From the NCBI GenBank assembly GCA_963796835.1, contig CAWCND010000009.1:38859-102858 (forward strand): a DNA stretch of 64,000 nucleotides, read 5' to 3'. The translations under genes were made by a program, and so were the position numbers. The DNA is from Candidatus Aminicenantes bacterium. GTDB lineage: Bacteria; Acidobacteriota; Aminicenantia; Aminicenantales; Saccharicenantaceae. The notes under the pieces are model-generated. The model ran no database searches. It was not told the DNA's origin and saw only the letters and a program-made list of their open reading frames with translations. Below, one piece after another: positions 39,639 through 63,348 of this stretch (position 1 is the first letter of the stretch; each line of letters starts with the position of its first letter).

Positions 39639-39671
39639 CGTTCCTTCCTCGTTCTCCCTATATCACCAGAG

Positions 39672-39744
39672 CTGGGGCGGGAGGATTCGAACCTCCGAAT
39701 GACGGAGCCAAAGTCCGTTGCCTTACCGCTTGGCTACGCCCCAG
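39672..39744 (-). tRNA. tRNA-Gln (anticodon UUG)
   Basis: The minus-strand sequence TGGGGCGTAGCCAAGCGGTAAGGCAACGGACTTTGGCTCCGTCATTCGGAGGTTCGAATCCTCCCGCCCCAG folds as a cloverleaf and closely resembles E. coli tRNA-Gln. Anticodon loop CUUUGGC. Coordinates are +/-1. Confidence 0.85.
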
Positions 39745-40810
39745 CGCCGACTTGCGCCCAATAGCCCTCACGCGGCAGGGTTTCCACGAGGCGGGCCTCC
39801 GACTTGCCACGGAGCAGGTCGAGAGCCTTCCGGGCCTGGTTCCTGTCGGTGAAGAGCCCGAAAACCGCCGAGCCCGAGCCGGTCACCAAGGACAAGGCCG
39901 CGCCCTGGCCCCGGAAAAACCTCTTGAACACTTCAAGTTCGGGATATCGCCGGAAAATGACGAGTTCCAGGTCGTTTTCCAAAAGACCGAAATCTCCGGT
40001 ATCCAGAAAACGCATAATTTTACTGTCTTTGGCGGGTGAAGTCAACTCCTCGAGTCCCCGGCCTGAATGCCGGGGCTTGTTTGGGGTTACTAAGCCGGGC
40101 AGGATATAATTGTCTTCAGATTTCTCTATCGCCCGGCTAGTACTCGGGGAGCAGCAAGGATTATGTAATATATTTACTGCTCCCCGTAGTAACCCTGAGC
40201 CTCGCTTCTTGTCCCCGACTTGAAAGGCGGGGCTTAGCGTCGGCGAACGGGTCAAGGATGCCCCGAGGCCCGCATAGATCTCGGCGGTGTGGATCGGGTA
40301 CGGCGGGAAGGCGAGAACACAGGGGAGGGGCGGGAGATCGGGGAGCCGTTTCAGGACTTCGCCCCGGGACTCCCCGAGGCAGAGCCCGCCCTGGAGGAAA
40401 TAAGGGACATCGGACCCGAGGAGGAGCGCCAGCTCGGCCAGGGTTTCTGCCCCGAGCCCGAGGGACCACAGCTTGTTCAGGGCGAGAAGCGTGACCGCGG
40501 CGTTCGCGCTCCCGCCGCCGAGTCCCTTTCCGGGCGGGACGGTTTTGGCCACCCGGATGCGCACGCCGGCCGGGCTCCCGGTCCGCTCCCGGAGCAGACG
40601 GGCCGCCCGGAAAACGAGGTTCGTCGGATCCCAGGCCACCGAAGGCTCGTCGCCCTCGAGACGGATCGATCCGTCCGCGGCGGGCTCCAACTCGATCGTG
40701 TCGGCGAGAGCGACCGACTGGAAAAGGGTCCTGATGTCGTGGTAACCGTCGGGCCTCTTCCGGACGATCTCCAGGCCGAGGTTGATCTTGGCGAAGGACC
40801 TAACCTTCAT
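39734..40810 (-). CDS. ispE: 4-diphosphocytidyl-2-C-methyl-D-erythritol kinase IspE carrying an in-frame ~70 aa repeat-element insertion
   Basis: The GHMP kinase N-terminal domain (PPGKGLGGGSANAA) and C-terminal domain share one frame. A ~210 bp insert (40041..40255) encodes no stop codon. Confidence 0.85.
   Translation of the reverse strand: MKVRSFAKINLGLEIVRKRPDGYHDIRTLFQSVALADTIELEPAADGSIRLEGDEPSVAWDPTNLVFRAARLLRERTGSPAGVRIRVAKTVPPGKGLGGGSANAAVTLLALNKLWSLGLGAETLAELALLLGSDVPYFLQGGLCLGESRGEVLKRLPDLPPLPCVLAFPPYPIHTAEIYAGLGASLTRSPTLSPAFQVGDKKRGSGLLRGAVNILHNPCCSPSTSRAIEKSEDNYILPGLVTPNKPRHSGRGLEELTSPAKDSKIMRFLDTGDFGLLENDLELVIFRRYPELEVFKRFFRGQGAALSLVTGSGSAVFGLFTDRNQARKALDLLRGKSEARLVETLPREGYWAQVGAGA
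40041..40255. mobile_element. MITE-like hairpin-rich repeat element (copy A), in-frame within ispE; flanked by GTCAA on both sides
   Basis: Near-identical termini to copy B at 42091..42398. Four predicted stem-loops. Internal 8-9 bp inverted repeats GGTTACTA/TAGTAACC bracket a ~95 bp core. Confidence 0.7.
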
Positions 40811-42090: not shown

Positions 42091-42398
42091 GTCAAACCCT
42101 CGAGTCCCCGGCATGAATGCAGGGGCTTGTTCGGGGTTACTACGGGGAGCAGTAAGTATATTACATAATCCTTGCTGCTCCCCGAGTACTAGCCGGGCGA
42201 TAGAGAAATCTGAAGACAATTATATCCTGCCCGGCTTAGTAACCCTGAGCCTCGCTTCTTATCCCCGCCCTGAAGCTCCACGGACTTACCCCGACTTTTG
42301 CGGTCTTTGGAGCGCCTGTCCCCGGAGCGGGGGTTCGCTATTCCTCTGTCCCGCGAAGGGGGTTGAAAGGCGGGGCTTAGCGTCGGCGAACGGGTCAA
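42091..42398. mobile_element. MITE-like repeat element copy B (intergenic), with the central ~95 bp segment inverted relative to copy A and a ~95 bp internal partial duplication in the right arm
   Basis: Left arm (gtcaaaccctcgagtccccggcatgaatgcaggggcttgttcggggttacta) and right arm (gtaaccctgagcctcgcttctt...ttgaaaggcggggcttagcgtcggcgaacgggtcaa) match copy A. The core is the reverse complement of copy A's core. Confidence 0.7.
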
Positions 42399-51270: not shown

Positions 51271-51808
51271 CCCTCATTATACATAAAAGAGGACCCGTCC
51301 CGCTTCGTTGCTCTGTCACACTTCCGGAAAATATCTGGATCAAGAGGGACTGTCCCTGAAAGCGGGAAAGCCCCCTTTACCGGTGACGCGGATGCGGGGA
51401 GCGTGAGGCGGAGCGATGATGGATGGAGACGCACACGGAGAGGACGCCTCCGGCGGGACGAGAGCCAAAGGCCGAAGGGGAAGGGCTGGAACGTCATGTG
51501 CGGCTTAGCGCAAGCCGCACTCTGGAGTGAAGGCCATCCCCGAGGCCTTCGGCTGCTCGCTGGGGCAGGACCCCCGACCTTGACATACGAGGGATTGAGG
51601 CGAGCGCAGGCCTTGGGGACGTCCGCCGCCGTCCTGCTCCGGGCAGCCGGCCAGTGCGCCCCCCTCCGGGCCCAAAGCGGTGGCGCCGGGGTCATCCGAA
51701 AGACCCCGTTTGGAGAGGGACCCGGCGGGATTTCCGACGGGGGAACCGGGACAGGTTCCCGGGGCCGGGGGATAAGGGTGACCCGGGTGCCACCCCAATT
51801 GAGTGTGC

Positions 51809-56443: not shown

Positions 56444-57926
56444 CTATAATCCCCACGAACGGATCACGGCCTGGACCCCCTCCGCCAGCACGCCGGCGGC
56501 GGGCTGGATCCAGGATTTGATGGTCACCGAGAAGAAGATGCCGATCCCGACGCAAAGGGAGGCCAGCAAGACGGTCGAGGCGGTCATCCAGAAGGGCGCC
56601 TCCTTCACGGCGGCCCATCTCTCGTTGAGCTTTCCGAAGAAGGCCTTGCGCTGGATGAGGAGGTAATACCAGAGGGTCAGGACCGAGGCCAGTACGGCGA
56701 TCAAGGCGAAGACGGGGTGCCCCGCCTGGATGAGGGCCATGATGATGAGGAGCTTGGACCAGAAGCCGTTGAGGGGCGGGACGCCGGCGATCGACAGGGA
56801 GCCGATGAGGTTCGTGGCCGCGGTGAAAGGCATCCGCTTGGCCAGGCCGCCCATCTCGTCGAGGTTGCGGGTGCCGGTGGCCTGCTGGATGGAGCCGGAG
56901 GTCAAGAACAGGAGCCCCTTGGCCAGGGCGTGGTTGAACAGGTGGAAGAGCCCGCCGGCGATGCCGAGCGGCGTCCCGAGGCCGATCCCCAGGACGATGT
57001 AGCCGACCTGGCTGATCGAGGAATAGGCCAGCATCCGCTTGATGTCTTTCTGGCCCAGGGCCAGGAAGGCGGCGACGACCAGGGATACGGTGCCGAGGGT
57101 CATCAGGACACTGGACAGGGCCGGCGTCAGGCCGAAGACGTTGAGGAAGACCCGGGTCAGGGCGTAGACGCCCGAGACCTTGATCAGCAGGCCCGACAGG
57201 ACGGCCGAGATCGGGGCCGGGGCCGAGGGGTGGGCGTCCGGCAGCCAGGCGTGGAAGGGGACGAGGGCCGCCTTCAGCCCGAAGCCCATGATGAAGAGGG
57301 CCGCGCAGATGCCGACGACCGGGCCGGCGTTGAGGTCTTGGAGGGCCCTGGCCACGGCCGGCGAAGCTCAGGCTGCCGGTCATGCCGAAGATGACGGCGA
57401 TGCTGACCAGGATGAAGGCCGAGGCCACGACGGACAGCAGGAGGTACTTGAAGGCCGCCTCGAGCTCGTCCTGCCCGAGGCCGAAGGCCACCAGGGCGTA
57501 GGAGGCGACGGCGGCCACCTCGAGAAAGACGTAGATGTTGAAAAGGTCCGTGGCCAGGACGAGGCCGTTCATCCCGGCGATCATGATCAGGAGCAGGGCG
57601 TAATAATTCGCCTTGGCCCCGTAGTGCTCCATGTAGTCGATCGAGAACAGGCTGACGCAAAGCCCGACCAGGGAGATGGCCATGAGCATGAGCAGGCTGA
57701 ACCCGTCGAGGGCCAGGCGGAGGTTGACGGTCTCCCCGAGCCAGGTCAGCTTCTGGAGGGCGGGTCCGTTCCCGATGAGCGGCCGGCCGACGGCCACGGC
57801 GTAGACGAGCAAGAAGAGAAGGGCCGCGTTGGCCAGCAGGTCCGGCACGACCCTCCGGGAGACCTTGCCGACGAGCGGCAGGACTCCCGCCACGATGAGC
57901 GGCAGGGCAACGAAGAGAATGATCAA
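56444..57926 (-). CDS. NuoM/N-like antiporter subunit (Proton_antipo_M family), one frameshift
   Basis: ORF 56444..57355 (C-terminal) plus the N-terminal part of ORF 56280..57926. Confidence 0.8.
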
Positions 57927-57979: not shown

Positions 57980-59854
57980 CTATTTCGTGAGCATGGAGAT
58001 GACCCCGGCCACGATGATGAGGCCGGCCAGGCACCAGGCCAGGTAATTCGCGTAGTGCCCGTTGTGGGCCTTCTTCAGGATCCCGGTGAACTTCCCGCCC
58101 ACGGCCGTGACGGCCTTCTCGAAGACGAAGTCGATGGGCCGGTCGACCGCCTTGAACAGGACCATGGACAGCCCCCGGAGGAACTTCACGCCCTGCTCGT
58201 AGAGGTCGAACACCCGCGCTTCGGCCAGATCGTAGAGCTTATGGAGGACCGGGCAGGTTGTGGACCGGCTCGGAGGCCAGGTAGGGCTTGCGCCCCGACT
58301 TCCGGAAGCCGTAGGCGTGGAGGAGGAAGGCTAGGACCAGGCAGGCCAGGGAGATGAGGGCGATGGGGTTGACGAGGGCCAGGGCGTGGGCCGTGAAGTC
58401 GACAGGCTCGCCCGCCTCGACGTGGCCCGCCAGGATCGGCTGGATGAACAGGGTCAGGGGCAGCTTGTTGAAGACGCCGAAGATGATGCAGAGCAGGGCC
58501 AGGATCGAGGATCGGGATAACGACGGGCGCCTGGCTTTCCTTGACCGGCCGGGACCTCCTTCGTCCGTTCGCCGAAGAAGACCGAGTGGCCGGCCTTGAG
58601 GAACGAGGCGAAGGTGAAGATCGCCCCGACCCAGGCGGCGATGGCGAAGACGATGTAGCCGGTCTCGATCGCGCCGTGGAAGACCATCTCCTTGGAGACG
58701 AACCCGTTGAGCGGCCAGACGCCCGAGATGGCCAGGGCGCAGACGGAGAAGCCGAACGCGGTCAAGGGCATCTCCTTGCCAGAGCCGCCGAGCTTCTTGA
58801 GCTCGGTCGTCCCGGTCCGGTGCTCGACCGAGCCGGCGCTCAGGAAGAGCCCGCACTTGTACATGGCGTGGTTGATCATGTGGAAGAGGCCGCCGGCGAT
58901 GCCGATGGGGATGCCCGTGCCGATGCCCAGGACCATGTAGCCGACCTGGCTGATGGCGTGGAAGGACAGCAGCTTCTTGAAGTCCTTCTGGATGAGGGCC
59001 ATGAACACGGCCAGGACGATGGTCACCGCGCCGATGGTCATCATCAGGATCGACAGGCCGCTGCCCGGCTCGATCTTGAAGAAATCGAGGGTGATGCCGG
59101 GCCAGCAGGTAGATGCCCAGGAGCTTTTCGAAGGCGGCCGGCAGGAAGGCCATGAAGGTCACGGGCGCGTCGAGGGCGGCGTCGGGGATCCAGGTGTGGA
59201 AGGGCATGGCGCCGGCCTTGCCGATGGCGCCGATCATCATCAGGACGAAGGCCGCCGCGGCCAGGCCCGTCGGGCTCGACCGAGATCTCGGACATCGTCA
59301 GCGTGCCGGACAGCGACCAGAGGAGGCCGATGCCCAGGATCATGCAGAAATCGCAGAAGCCGCTGATCAGGAGGGCCTTGACCGCGGTCCGGCTCGACGT
59401 CGGCTTGCCGCCGATGGTGATCAGGCCGTACAGGGTCACGAGCAGCCCTTCCCAGAAGAAGAGGAGGGGCACGAAATTGTTGGCCAGGACCGCGCCGTTG
59501 GCGAAGGCGGCCGTCAGGAAAACGTAGGCGTAATATTCCCGGACCCGCGGGGCGTCCTTCATCTTGACCGTCGAATAGAGCGTGATCAGGACGAGGAACC
59601 CGCGACAGGGCGAGCAGGATGAAGCTCGAAAAGTGGAACAGGCGAAGCTCGAAATCGATCCCCATTCCGAGCCAGGGGACGCTCAGCTCGAGGTTCTTCA
59701 CCGAGAAGAAGACGAACGCGTAATAGAGGAGGGCTGCGGACCCGGCGACGGCCAGCAGTTCGCGGAGGAGCCTGACCCCCTTGGGGATGAGGAGAAGGAC
59801 GACGGCGAGGACCGCGGGCAGAAGGACCGGCAGAAGGAGCATTTTGGGCGTCAT
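57980..59854 (-). CDS. NuoL-like antiporter subunit including the C-terminal long helix and last TM (frameshifted)
   Basis: The N-terminal fragment runs in ORFs 59240..59866 and 59044..59562, the core in 58454..59044. The separate 77 aa ORF 57980..58213 matches the NuoL C-terminal helix and TM16. Confidence 0.7.
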
Positions 59855-61282
59855 CGGAGCCACCAACTCATCTGGGCCGTCGCAACGCTGACGAGTTTCA
59901 TGGGAAACGAGACGAGAAGGCCGGCCGCCAGGCTGAGGACGGCCAGGGTCGCGACGACAAAGACCATGGATTTCGTTTTTTCAGGGGCCGGATGCTTGGC
60001 CTCACCCAGGAAAACCAGGCTGAAGACCTTCAGCAGGTAGAACATCGTCAGGACGGCGGTGAACAGGGCCGTCCCGGCCAGCCAGACCTGGCCCGCTTGA
60101 AGGGTGCCCATGATCACCAGGAACTTGGAGAAGAACCCGCCGAAGGGCGGGATGCCGATGACGGAGAACGCGCAGAAAAGAAAAGCGACCGCGGTGACGG
60201 GCATGGTCCGGATGAGGCCGCCCATCTCCCGGATGTCCTTGGTGTGGGTCGCGTGGATGACGATCCCGGCGCAGAGGAAGAGGCCGGCCTTGGCCAGGCC
60301 GTGCATCAGGATGAAGAGCAGGGACCCGGAGATGCCGGCCGCGTTGGCCATGCTGAAGCCCGAGGAAGATGTAGCCGATCTGGCTGACCGTCGAGTAGGC
60401 CAGGATCCGTTTGAAGTCGTTCTCGACGGCGGCCGCGCCCGCGGCGACCAGGCTGGAGACGACCACGACGATGGGGATGATCTGCTGCCATTCGGCCGGG
60501 ATCCTGAAGCCGTAGAGGAAGAGCCGGGCGTAGGCGTAGACGCCGATCTTGACGAGGACGGCGGCGTGGAGGAGGGCCGTGACGGTCGTCGGCGCGACGC
60601 CGGCGTCTGGCAGCCACGTATGCAGGGGCACCGTGGCGGATTTCGAGAACAGGCCAAAGAGGATCAGCAGGACCGCGCTTCCGGGGATGAGGGTCCCCCG
60701 CATGGCGGTGATGTCGAAGGTTTTCGTGACGCCGTAGATCTGGATGAACCCCAGGAGCATGACCACGGCGCCGAAGAAAGTCACGAGGAAGGCCTTGTCC
60801 GCTTTGATGACGAAGTCCCGCTGGCGGTAGAACCCGATCAGGCGCCAGCAGCTGATGGCGATGATCTCCCAGAACAGGTACAGGAAGATGAGGTTGCCGG
60901 AGAAGACGAGCCCCATCATGGCGCCGATGAACAGGAGGACCATCAGGTAGTATTCGTTCTGGTGCTCCTCGTGGTGGATGTAGCCGATGGAATAGACGAC
61001 GATCAGGCAGCCGACGAACGATGAGACGCAGGCCATGAAGATCGACAGGGGGTCGAGGATGAGGATGACGTCGAGCCCGAGGACGAAGGGCTTGCGGACG
61101 ACCAGATCCCCACCGCCGAGGGCGAACGGGATCAAGGTCAGGGGCAAGACCGCCGTCGCGGCGCTCACCAGGATGGCCCACAGCGACCGGGCGGGCTTGG
61201 AGACGAGGGCCGCCAGCGGGACCGCGAATGAGCCGACGATGGGGACGAGAATCGTGAGGAGGGCGATGGTTTCGACGTTCAT
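59851..61282 (-). CDS. NuoN/M-like antiporter subunit (frameshifted)
   Basis: ORF 60002..61282 (N-terminal) and ORF 59851..60657 (C-terminal) both carry Proton_antipo_M blocks. Confidence 0.8.
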
Positions 61283-62591: not shown

Positions 62592-62851
62592 GAAGCGAGG
62601 GCCCGTCCCTGAGAGCGGGCCAGCCCCTCTTGATCCAGATAGTTCCCAGAAGTGCGGCTCCGAGATGCTCCGCCACACTTCTGATGGTCGTTCCTCGGAA
62701 TCCGCTCCCTGCCGGTCCTGCCCGTGTGCGTTCCTGTCAGGCCTTCGGGGATGGCCTCCACTCCAGAGCGCGGTTCTTCACGCCTCCCCGAACCCTTCTT
62801 TCTCGGTGTCTGCGGAACTCGCTCAGCACTCCCTGACCCGCCCCGAATCTT

Positions 62852-62882
62852 AAAAAACGGGTTTCCTTTCTCCCGTTTTTTT
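62852..62882. terminator. Bidirectional rho-independent terminator (AAAAAACGGG...CCCGTTTTTTT)
   Basis: An A-run precedes and a T-run follows the hairpin, in the convergent intergenic region. Confidence 0.55.
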
Positions 62883-63348
62883 CCGAGCCTCCGCACTCTG
62901 TTGAATTTTGCTCAGACATCCTCGCCGCCCTCATGGGAGGGAATACCCAAGAGAGGTTTCCTCCCATGAGGATTCCCTCGAAAAACGGTTCGGAGAGGCT
63001 AAACCGCGCATGACGTTCCGGCCAATCCCCGAAAGCCCTCTTTAGCAGGGCACCGGCGGTCGGTCCCGTCGGTCGAACCCTCCAGAATTGTTGTCAAAAG
63101 GAATAGCCGGACGCAGGGGGGATGTCCCGGAGAAAACATTGAGCGCGACGCGGGCACGGTCCCTCGCCCCTTGGGCGAGGGGAGCGGAGCGATCACAGAG
63201 TGGGATTCCTCGCTGGGGAATCCCACGTTTTTCGGAGGGACTCTCCCCGAGTCCGCGACCTCGAGAAGGGAGGCCATTTCCCGAGGCCCTGAGATGGGAC
63301 ATGCCGGGACAGGACCCGTCCGGCCTTTTCGCCATCTGATAGGCCGGC

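Follow-up and report, generated by a model that had tools for sequence, protein, structure and literature searches.

Location outside genes is part of the definition of repetitive extragenic palindromic elements (REPs), which have a GTAG-type head and an association with RAYT transposases. Rickettsia palindromic elements (RPEs) are palindromic repeats of ~100–150 bp that are found in frame in unrelated genes, the extra peptide being compatible with the protein fold, and in-frame insertion, nesting, inversion and carriage of promoter elements have all been documented for MITEs (miniature transposable elements with inverted repeats; PMC10969869). Among the insertion sequences (ISs) of the IS200/IS605 type, ISDra2 has the target TTGAT; for TTGAC, a role as the transposon-adjacent motif (TAM) of TnpB or as a left cleavage site has been predicted (PMC12415229). 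Here we describe a hairpin-rich segment of 210 bp inserted in ispE, the gene for an essential kinase of the methylerythritol phosphate (MEP) pathway, in a 64-kb stretch of DNA from Candidatus Aminicenantes bacterium (hereafter, the window), the genome in question being covered within these 64 kb. The initial annotation of this locus took the segment for a single element. Instead, we consider it likely, with a probability of about 0.8, that it consists of two unrelated non-autonomous mini-elements, MITE1 (108 bp) and MITE2 (100 bp plus a TA duplication), the latter nested in the former and oppositely oriented in the two copies found in the window. MITE1 and MITE2 are two new families, although the phenomenon itself is already known; full-text literature searches returned no description of either, nor of MITEs in Aminicenantes.

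The ispE open reading frame (ORF; 39734..40810, minus strand) encodes 358 amino acids (aa), as compared to 288 aa in ~115 of the 120 best homologues that made up the comparison set, including P0002, which is 92% identical to the IspE of the window. The excess length, correctly noticed in the initial annotation, is confined to one block of 70 aa (residues 186–255) that the protein alignment places between ...IYAG.GAS and LTSPAKDSK..., and the GHMP kinase N (PF00288) and C (PF08544) domains are intact on either side of it; LTRSPTLSPAFQVGDK is an example of a peptide across the insert junction. Orthologs that are 80–92% identical to this IspE have no insert. The contig encoding P0002 (L002), with the same gene order as the window, served as the reference for the empty site. 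The two sequences align throughout except for two gaps, of 205 + 5 nucleotides (nt) in ispE and of 298 + 5 nt in a spacer 2 kb away, and at each of these sites the BLAST segments overlap by the 5 nt TTGAC, which is present once in L002 vs the arrangement TTGAC-[element]-TTGAC in the window. From the single pentamer and the 5-nt breakpoint overlap, copy 1 is an insert of exactly 210 bp and copy 2 one of exactly 303 bp, both multiples of 3. On the minus strand, the composite insert in ispE occupies 40046..40255 or, equally, 40041..40250 owing to the 5-nt repeat, and its translation accounts for residues 186–255. Upstream of the MITE1 left end lies the target pentamer, the left TTGAC (40251..40255, GTCAA on the plus strand), which is translated as Leu-Thr; the right TTGAC (40041..40045) represents a duplicated target or else the final 5 nt of MITE1. 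The pentamer occurs in ispE only once, counting either strand, and there represents the Leu-Thr codons of the invariant SLTS motif. The empty site thus confirms that a small non-coding repeat was inserted in frame and without a stop codon and, given that the relative carrying this site is 92% identical, the insertion is recent, at the strain level.

The second composite copy (42091..42398, minus strand) is a 303-bp insert plus one TTGAC located between genes. It is inserted at a TTGACT resembling a -35 box, with TATAAA downstream, and is bounded by TTGAC at 42394–42398 and 42091–42095. Both copies fold as single strands much better than shuffled sequences (z = -5.4 for copy 1, with 0 of 200 shuffles as good; z = -4.0 for copy 2, with 0 of 100), and the four stem-loops originally listed are all present. 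The two copies had been described as near-identical at the ends. The ends are indeed shared, but so is the central part, in inverted form: the 115 nt at 40084–40198 are 98% complementary to 42131–42245. Copy 2 additionally contains a structured 92-nt module (42271..42362, minus strand) in the loop of its left hairpin, and this module is also present in the MITE1 copies of L090, L081, L022 and L110. The shared central part contains MITE2. In ispE, MITE2 (copy 1, 100 nt, 40090..40189, minus strand in the X-to-Y direction) consists of hairpin X (40145–40186) and hairpin Y (40093–40138), is flanked by TA at 40088–40089 and 40190–40191, and is located in the center of the palindrome GGGTTAACCC; in the spacer, MITE2 (copy 2, 100 nt, 42140..42239, plus strand, with X at 42143–42184 and Y at 42191–42236) is 99% identical to copy 1 and inverted within its MITE1. 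The uninterrupted palindrome GGGTTAACCC of the canonical MITE1 is the empty site for MITE2, and the window copies read GGGT-TA-[100 nt]-TA-ACCC at this position.

On the ispE coding strand, the canonical MITE1 has the structure TTGAC CCGTTCGCCGACGCTAAG CCCCGCC-TTTCAA-GGCGGGG ACAAGAAGCGAGGCTCA GGGTTAACCC CGAACAAG CCCCGGC-ATTCAT-GCCGGGG ACTCGAGGGG TTGAC. In the ispE copy, all on the minus strand, the left arm CCGTTCGCCGACGCTAAG (18 nt, 40233..40250), the most conserved part of the family, is followed by the left subterminal hairpin (40213..40232, CCCCGCC-TTTCAA-GTCGGGG, with one mismatch in this copy), and the right part (40046..40075) comprises the right subterminal hairpin CCCCGGC-ATTCAG-GCCGGGG (40056–40075) and the 10-nt right arm ACTCGAGGAG (40046–40055). 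The outer ends are TTGAC-CCGTTCG at the left and GGGGTTGAC at the right; in our reading of the consensus, 5 of the first 7 terminal bases match (CCGTTCG vs CCCCTCG). The two hairpins are on the same strand, separated from the left TTGAC by 18 nt and from the right one by 10 nt, and are substituted by other hairpins in some subfamilies. Among 21 canonical copies, 92% of the cells in the covariation analysis are paired, with compensatory changes in the AACCCC/GGGGTT helix that joins the right terminus to the central palindrome. At the gathering threshold and at E <= 1, no Rfam family was matched.

Scanning 185,579 species-representative genomes with the 18 nt of the conserved left arm yielded at least 112 stretches; the MITE1 figures rest on the matches listed, so that the numbers of copies per genome are lower bounds, and the search pattern fixed GAC at the left end, which makes copies reversed relative to the target undetectable. 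Most of these stretches come from metagenome-assembled genomes (MAGs) of Aminicenantes (at least 8 genomes), including PFL55, the complete chromosome OY969696.1, MFD01872, LacPavin and SPRUCE, and the leftover single matches in unrelated taxa resemble chance hits. In two scans of viral contigs, MITE1 was not found. At least 74 complete copies were extracted, nearly all with TTGAC on both sides; the modal length is 113 nt with both pentamers (20 copies), which corresponds to the 108-bp core, and the range is 58–313 nt including both pentamers (53–308 nt inserted), compared with less than ~300–500 bp for MITEs in general, the only ORFs being those of read-through peptides. MITE1 is thus an Aminicenantes-wide family of small, non-autonomous, hairpin-rich elements. 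Several typical copies are also found in bins labeled 'uncultured Eubacteriales' (L024, L029, L041, L061 and L098 of CAZPEP01; L037 of CAZGJS01), which suggests a mislabeled Aminicenantes-like bin or, less likely, horizontal spread.

Because many MITE1 copies bear further hairpin modules, the family is a mosaic. Copies with further nested modules or duplicated left hairpins include L010, L021, L048, L052, L101 and L110 in PFL55 and L019 and L079 in OY969696.1; one of these modules is a perfect 30-nt palindrome, TACTCATGAACCG-GAAA-CGGTTCATGAGTA, with TA...TA ends like those of the MITE2 sub-units, and there are also single-hairpin forms of 78 nt that retain only the arms. In the head-to-tail tandems of L116 (~6507) and L075 (~1208), adjacent copies share a single TTGAC that serves as the right pentamer of the first and the left pentamer of the second. 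With its pattern TTGAC...GGG-TTAAC-CCC...TTGAC, the canonical 108-nt element gives the impression of an old dimer in which TTAAC joins two hairpin units.

For MITE2, the pattern of the first hairpin, CGGGGAGCAG-N16-28-CTGCTCCCCG, was searched against metagenomes and returned at least 120 stretches; the MITE2 figures again refer to the matches listed. The full two-hairpin architecture is present in at least 89 copies, among which 86 of the 89 listed are exactly 100 nt long and 81 have TA on both sides, in the context (T/A)TA...TA(A/T). The termini, CTACGGGGAGCAG... and ...GCCCGGCTTAG (CTA...TAG), match at 13 of 19 positions by our reading. Only three of the listed copies are inside MITE1, namely, both window copies and L209, and the flanks are otherwise unrelated. 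The fixed length, the TA on both sides and the more than 85 unrelated flanks identify MITE2 as an independent, TA-duplicating MITE. The initial suggestion that the repeat family is specific to this genome accordingly does not hold for either component, with MITE1 in at least 8 Aminicenantes MAGs and MITE2 in more than 85 metagenome contexts. The same search pattern also matched an unrelated repeat, with runs of GGGAGCAG/CTCCCTGCTCCC around a hairpin (L117, L123, L131, L139, L161, L196, L207, L217 and L230), which is palindromic and simple-sequence-like and resides on contigs unlike those that carry MITE2.

The pentamer GTCAA does bound both window copies, as initially proposed; however, it is more than a boundary and is part of a specific target. 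Immediately past the right TTGAC, 37 copies have T, 22 have A, 3 have C and none has G, compared to 21% of A or T after TTGAC in the background of the same loci (p = 6e-34), so that the target of MITE1 is TTGAC[T/A]. On the left, TTGAC precedes the arm in ~86% of the copies, a value in which the TT is unascertained and the GAC is forced by the search pattern. TTGAC[T/A] matches the consensus of the -35 box of sigma-70 promoters. Past the right TTGAC, hexamers resembling a -10 box (TAnnnT, 4 or more of 6 positions matching) cluster at spacers of 16–18 nt, in 26–27 of 62 copies (~42%), with 0–2 at most other spacings. The -35 box is present already in the empty site and is merely restored, and no obvious new promoters are made by MITE1.

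Active targeting of promoters by MITE1 was considered and rejected. The phased -10 signal is found in 47% vs 8% when all TTGAC sites are used for comparison, yet in 42% vs 24% when the comparison is with unoccupied TTGAC[A/T], and the excess is gone after matching for AT content, the rate in comparably AT-rich DNA being 31–42% at unoccupied TTGAC[A/T] sites. We conclude that the hexamer target, survival between genes and regeneration of the -35 box account for the promoter association, with no need for a promoter-sensing step: an element that ends in TTGAC restores the -35 box on insertion, so many of the surviving copies sit at promoters. With such a target, the elements mark, and may modulate, promoters, which could help promoter annotation in a phylum without genetics. 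Within ispE, the right TTGAC provides the first five bases of a promoter-like TTGACT-17 nt-TAAAAT (40017..40045, minus strand) that starts at the insertion target and is conserved in the empty-site relative; this sequence (40045..40017) could drive tRNA-Gln and prs.

Both elements would be moved in trans. MITE2, which duplicates TA and has putative short terminal inverted repeats, would move in the manner of Correia elements and other MITEs of the IS630/Tc1-mariner type. MITE1 would be inserted 3' of TTGAC[T/A] by a single-strand HUH/Y1 transposase of the IS200/IS605 type (ISDra2-like), with the right end of the element itself finishing in TTGAC. In favor of such a mechanism, MITE1 has no convincing terminal inverted repeat and has two similar subterminal hairpins located on one strand; its target is a pentanucleotide TTGAx, like the TTGAT of ISDra2; variation at the left TT exceeds that at the right TT (10 vs 2 of 74 copies, p = 0.03), which favors assigning the right TTGAC to the element; and the head-to-tail tandems that share one TTGAC were also counted for single-strand transposition. 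Furthermore, the orientation of MITE1 switches once along the 1.95-Mb CAVSEQ contig 5, where 7 of 7 copies match the sign of the local GC skew, and GC skew is positive in the top-strand orientation at 48 of 75 loci (p = 0.02), both of these trends being confounded by promoter and gene direction.

The principal alternative is that MITE1 is an ordinary MITE mobilized by a DDE transposase, with very short terminal inverted repeats (CCNNTCG) and a true 5-bp duplication at a strictly preferred TTGAC[T/A]. This is quite possible, somewhat short of even odds. The single TTGAC in the empty site and the two in the filled one are what it predicts; the conserved terminal arms are partly complementary (ACCCGTTCG vs CGAGGGGT) and are kept where the hairpins differ between subfamilies; and L067 carries a concordant TCGAC/TCGAC duplication. 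On the other hand, the inverted repeat amounts to just 5 of 7 bases, every copy seen has one orientation on an asymmetric target (though the search pattern is biased that way), and the left pentamer is more variable than the right one, with nine left-variant copies retaining the canonical right TTGAC.

The HUH/Y1 reading of MITE1 has to be weighed against a series of observations that speak against it. A tblastn search with approximate probes for IS608, IS200, RAYT and a generic Y1 detected no transposase in ~0.8 Mb of loci plus the window; in the fetched loci, there was no transposase gene in the two long intervals from left end to right end, nor TnpA/TnpB with matching ends, nor any autonomous IS sharing the ends of the elements. 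The 4–5 nt located 5' of the left hairpin, the putative guide, differ by subfamily (CTAAG vs CGCTA) and the target stays TTGAC, and the distance from the left hairpin to TTGAC is 18 vs 16 nt between subfamilies. It is the arms rather than the hairpins that are conserved, as recognition of the ends by a DDE-type enzyme would predict, and the concordant variant pentamer of L067 (TCGAC...TCGAC) is as a true duplication predicts. The left/right asymmetry is confounded by selection on the right TTGAC, in many cases a functional -35 box, the strand bias is confounded in that promoters follow the direction of genes and replication, and the GAC forced at the left hides copies in the reverse orientation. 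More generally, covariation in the hairpins is modest, the 5 pairs changed on both sides being equaled in 22 of 500 shuffles, and the insert-bearing IspE of 358 aa is known from one assembly. Clustering of the ORFs near the elements likewise gave read-through peptides only and no transposase.

On balance, the HUH/Y1 mechanism for MITE1 appears to be narrowly ahead of a DDE mechanism with a strict 5-bp duplication. In its complete form, in which MITE1 is a single-strand hairpin element mobilized by a HUH/Y1 enzyme, the cleavage/target site is the -35 hexamer TTGAC[T/A] and the right-end pentamer of the element itself spares promoters, the hypothesis is doubtful, and we put it forward as a tentative one. 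If true, MITE1 could set a structured, possibly terminating or insulating, cassette just upstream of many core promoters, translatability in 3 of 6 frames would let it persist within essential genes, and the promoter-targeting strategy of transposition would be one undescribed for IS200/IS605 relatives.

The nested organization in ispE most likely arose in two steps. First, a MITE1 copy integrated at the sole TTGAC of ispE, leaving TTGAC on both sides; then, MITE2 integrated, with TA duplication, into the TTAA in the center of the MITE1 palindrome. The ORF survives both steps because 108 bp and 102 bp (100 + TA) are added with no stop codon in the ispE frame. An alternative scenario involves a single composite element whose central portion of ~100–115 nt is a DNA switch, inverted through recombination or template switching at the 10-bp inverted repeats GGGGTTACTA / TAGTAACCCC; the composite would then have transposed as a unit via the MITE1 ends. 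Both MITE1 copies of the window hold MITE2, which does not occur on its own within the 64 kb; one orientation is the exact inversion of the other, with inverted repeats on either side; L209 provides a third nested example; and inversion of Correia elements has been reported (PMC10969869). Nevertheless, we regard this scenario as improbable. The unrelated flanks, the TA on both sides and the fixed length of MITE2 indicate that it is mobile on its own, and because its target in MITE1 is a perfect palindrome, independent insertions are expected in either orientation. Moreover, the window copies differ at 1 of 100 positions in MITE2 vs ~8 of 121 in the MITE1 parts (p = 0.04), i.e., the inner parts are 99% alike vs ~93% for the outer ones, which favors separate recent insertions of MITE2 over an old composite that was transposed and then inverted.

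In a second clade of Aminicenantes, with IspE ~68% identical, MITE1-derived inserts are found at the same TTGAC, all in frame: 35 aa in P0024, 56 aa in P0027, 35 aa in P0029 and 23 aa in P0040. The insert of P0024 is a decayed 105-nt MITE1, and that of P0027 belongs to another MITE1 subfamily, common to L069 and L115. The initial annotation had named conservation of the segment in IspE orthologs of unrelated taxa as the sign of a lineage-specific domain. A related insert does occur in these four proteins; however, since the copies are decayed or of another subfamily, closer relatives have no insert and ispE contains one TTGAC, the parsimonious interpretation is that they represent independent hits on the sole available target. 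Extended target recognition, which two hits at one ispE site might seem to call for, was rejected given that ispE holds one TTGAC on either strand. That every second-clade variant stays in frame suggests that the loop tolerates insertions over evolutionary time.

The structural model is compatible with such tolerance. An earlier AlphaFold run on 12 sequences was too poor (predicted local distance difference test score, pLDDT, of 52.8) and was replaced by an AlphaFold2 run on 84 sequences, in which both domains have pLDDT >90, and residues 183–259 have pLDDT <50 and no secondary structure; the core of the model matches the solved IspE structures 1oj4 and 1uek with target-normalized TM-scores of 0.83–0.87. 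Mapping onto an IspE structure, as initially suggested, thus places the insert in a predicted disordered excursion from the interdomain linker, and the enzyme with the insert is probably still active. Another possibility is that the insertion killed ispE and that the frame is open by coincidence, in a minority allele or a pseudogene of recent origin. In favor of this, the 358-aa protein occurs once vs the 288-aa P0002 found on 33 contigs, and the nearest relatives lack the insert. This possibility is improbable given that both nested steps are stop-free multiples of 3, that all catalytic motifs are intact and both domains are confidently modeled, and that the same loop holds in-frame MITE1-derived inserts of 23–56 aa in several diverged ispE genes of the other clade. 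The empty, single-element and doubly nested ispE alleles amount to a natural experiment that shows the IspE loop accepting 23–70 extra residues. Finally, a lineage-specific IspE domain or loop, to which the related peptide inserts at the same position in another Aminicenantes clade might point, or an assembly artifact, is effectively refuted by the empty-site and multi-copy evidence: the same DNA is intergenic 2 kb away and is present at dozens of unrelated loci, relatives with 80–92% identity lack the segment, and the flanks are the correct halves of ispE, in the right order and frame, each junction bearing the TTGAC that is the hallmark of the family.

Insertion in genes is not limited to ispE. 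In the canonical MITE1, two top-strand frames and one bottom-strand frame are open, and the third top-strand frame is shut by the TGA of TTGAC. Among 71 copies, 12 are located in frames that are open for at least 50 codons on each side, and 11 of these add a multiple of 3, although several of the frames are spurious, GC-rich ones; ~6–12 of the 71 copies in the sample are intragenic, and more than 80% are outside genes, at promoters. Hosts confirmed with Pfam comprise a sulfatase (element at aa 331–367, inside the PF00884 match), a TetR regulator (TetR_N) and a TamB-like protein, and these in-frame copies lend weight to the parallel with the palindromic elements of Rickettsia that had been drawn at the outset. 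They extend the in-frame colonization of proteins by palindromic mini-elements, best known in Rickettsia, to an uncultured free-living phylum and an essential MEP-pathway kinase. A search with the 40-aa MITE1 consensus peptide retrieved one protein, and phmmer with P0121 against 1.84 billion representatives retrieved 32 proteins, mostly short ORFs, two of which have weak Pfam matches (PMT-like and DUF2207); neither set amounts to a census of in-frame hosts. Many public short 'proteins' of 52–200 aa (P0121–P0153) are translations across MITE1, i.e., gene-calling artifacts, and, in Aminicenantes MAGs, the two undescribed repeat families will cause confusion in both gene prediction and assembly. 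In L066 (minus strand, ~2607), the stop codon of a response-regulator gene is the precise insertion point of a MITE1 copy (AAG-TGA-CCCGTTCG), where the TGA of the target GTGAC is the stop, and a second MITE1 copy flanks this gene on the upstream side.

Compared with described systems, MITE1 resembles RPEs in its in-frame occurrence in ispE (two clades) and in genes for the sulfatase, TetR and TamB-like proteins. This is analogy, not membership, in that MITE1 has no known sequence relationship with RPEs, resides in Aminicenantes, has a strict TTGAC[T/A] target and is mostly extragenic. Like the palindrome-associated transposable elements (PATEs) of the IS200/IS605 type (ISDra2 group), MITE1 carries its subterminal hairpins on a single strand, lacks convincing terminal inverted repeats, is inserted in one orientation beside TTGAx, and shows head-to-tail tandems and a strand bias; it differs from them in that the guide bases and spacing vary by subfamily and that TTGAC is present on both sides, so that a true duplication is possible. 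As in REPs and bacterial interspersed mosaic elements (BIMEs) of enterobacteria, short palindromic units of variable number and orientation form a mosaic, whereas extragenic restriction, a GTAG-type head and a link to RAYT were not seen for MITE1. The terminal TTGAC with a -10 box at 16–18 nt in ~42% of the copies is reminiscent of ISs with an outward-facing -35 box that form hybrid promoters; the difference is that the -35 box of the MITE1 site pre-exists and is restored.

MITE2, with its ~100 nt, putative short terminal inverted repeats, duplicated TA, location upstream of genes and occurrence in an inverted form, is similar to the Correia elements of Neisseria (CREE/NEMIS) and other MITEs of the IS630/Tc1-mariner type. 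It is distinguished from these by its unrelated sequence, its construction from two hairpin units in tandem and a length that is unusually constant (100 nt in 86 of the 89 listed copies). What is distinctive here is the -35-hexamer target that is regenerated, the nested pair in opposite orientations within 2 kb and the repeated colonization of one loop in an essential kinase.

The neighbors of ispE in the window are tRNA-Gln, prs and the L25 gene. The tRNA-Gln(TTG) gene (39671–39743) overlaps the last 10 nt of the ispE ORF (39734–39743) on the same strand.

Other repeats in the window are distinct from the two MITE families. The regions 51319–51543 and 62617–63030, ~11 kb apart and apparently non-coding, share three inverted blocks of 33–38 nt that are 85–93% complementary and changed in order. 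Their sequence is related to neither MITE1 nor MITE2, and they may represent a structured RNA or a further family of small repeats. Three further segments (56819–57118, 58757–59056 and 60359–60461), spaced by ~1.4–1.9 kb and with mutual identity of 72–74%, are probably paralogous genes in a row rather than mobile repeats.

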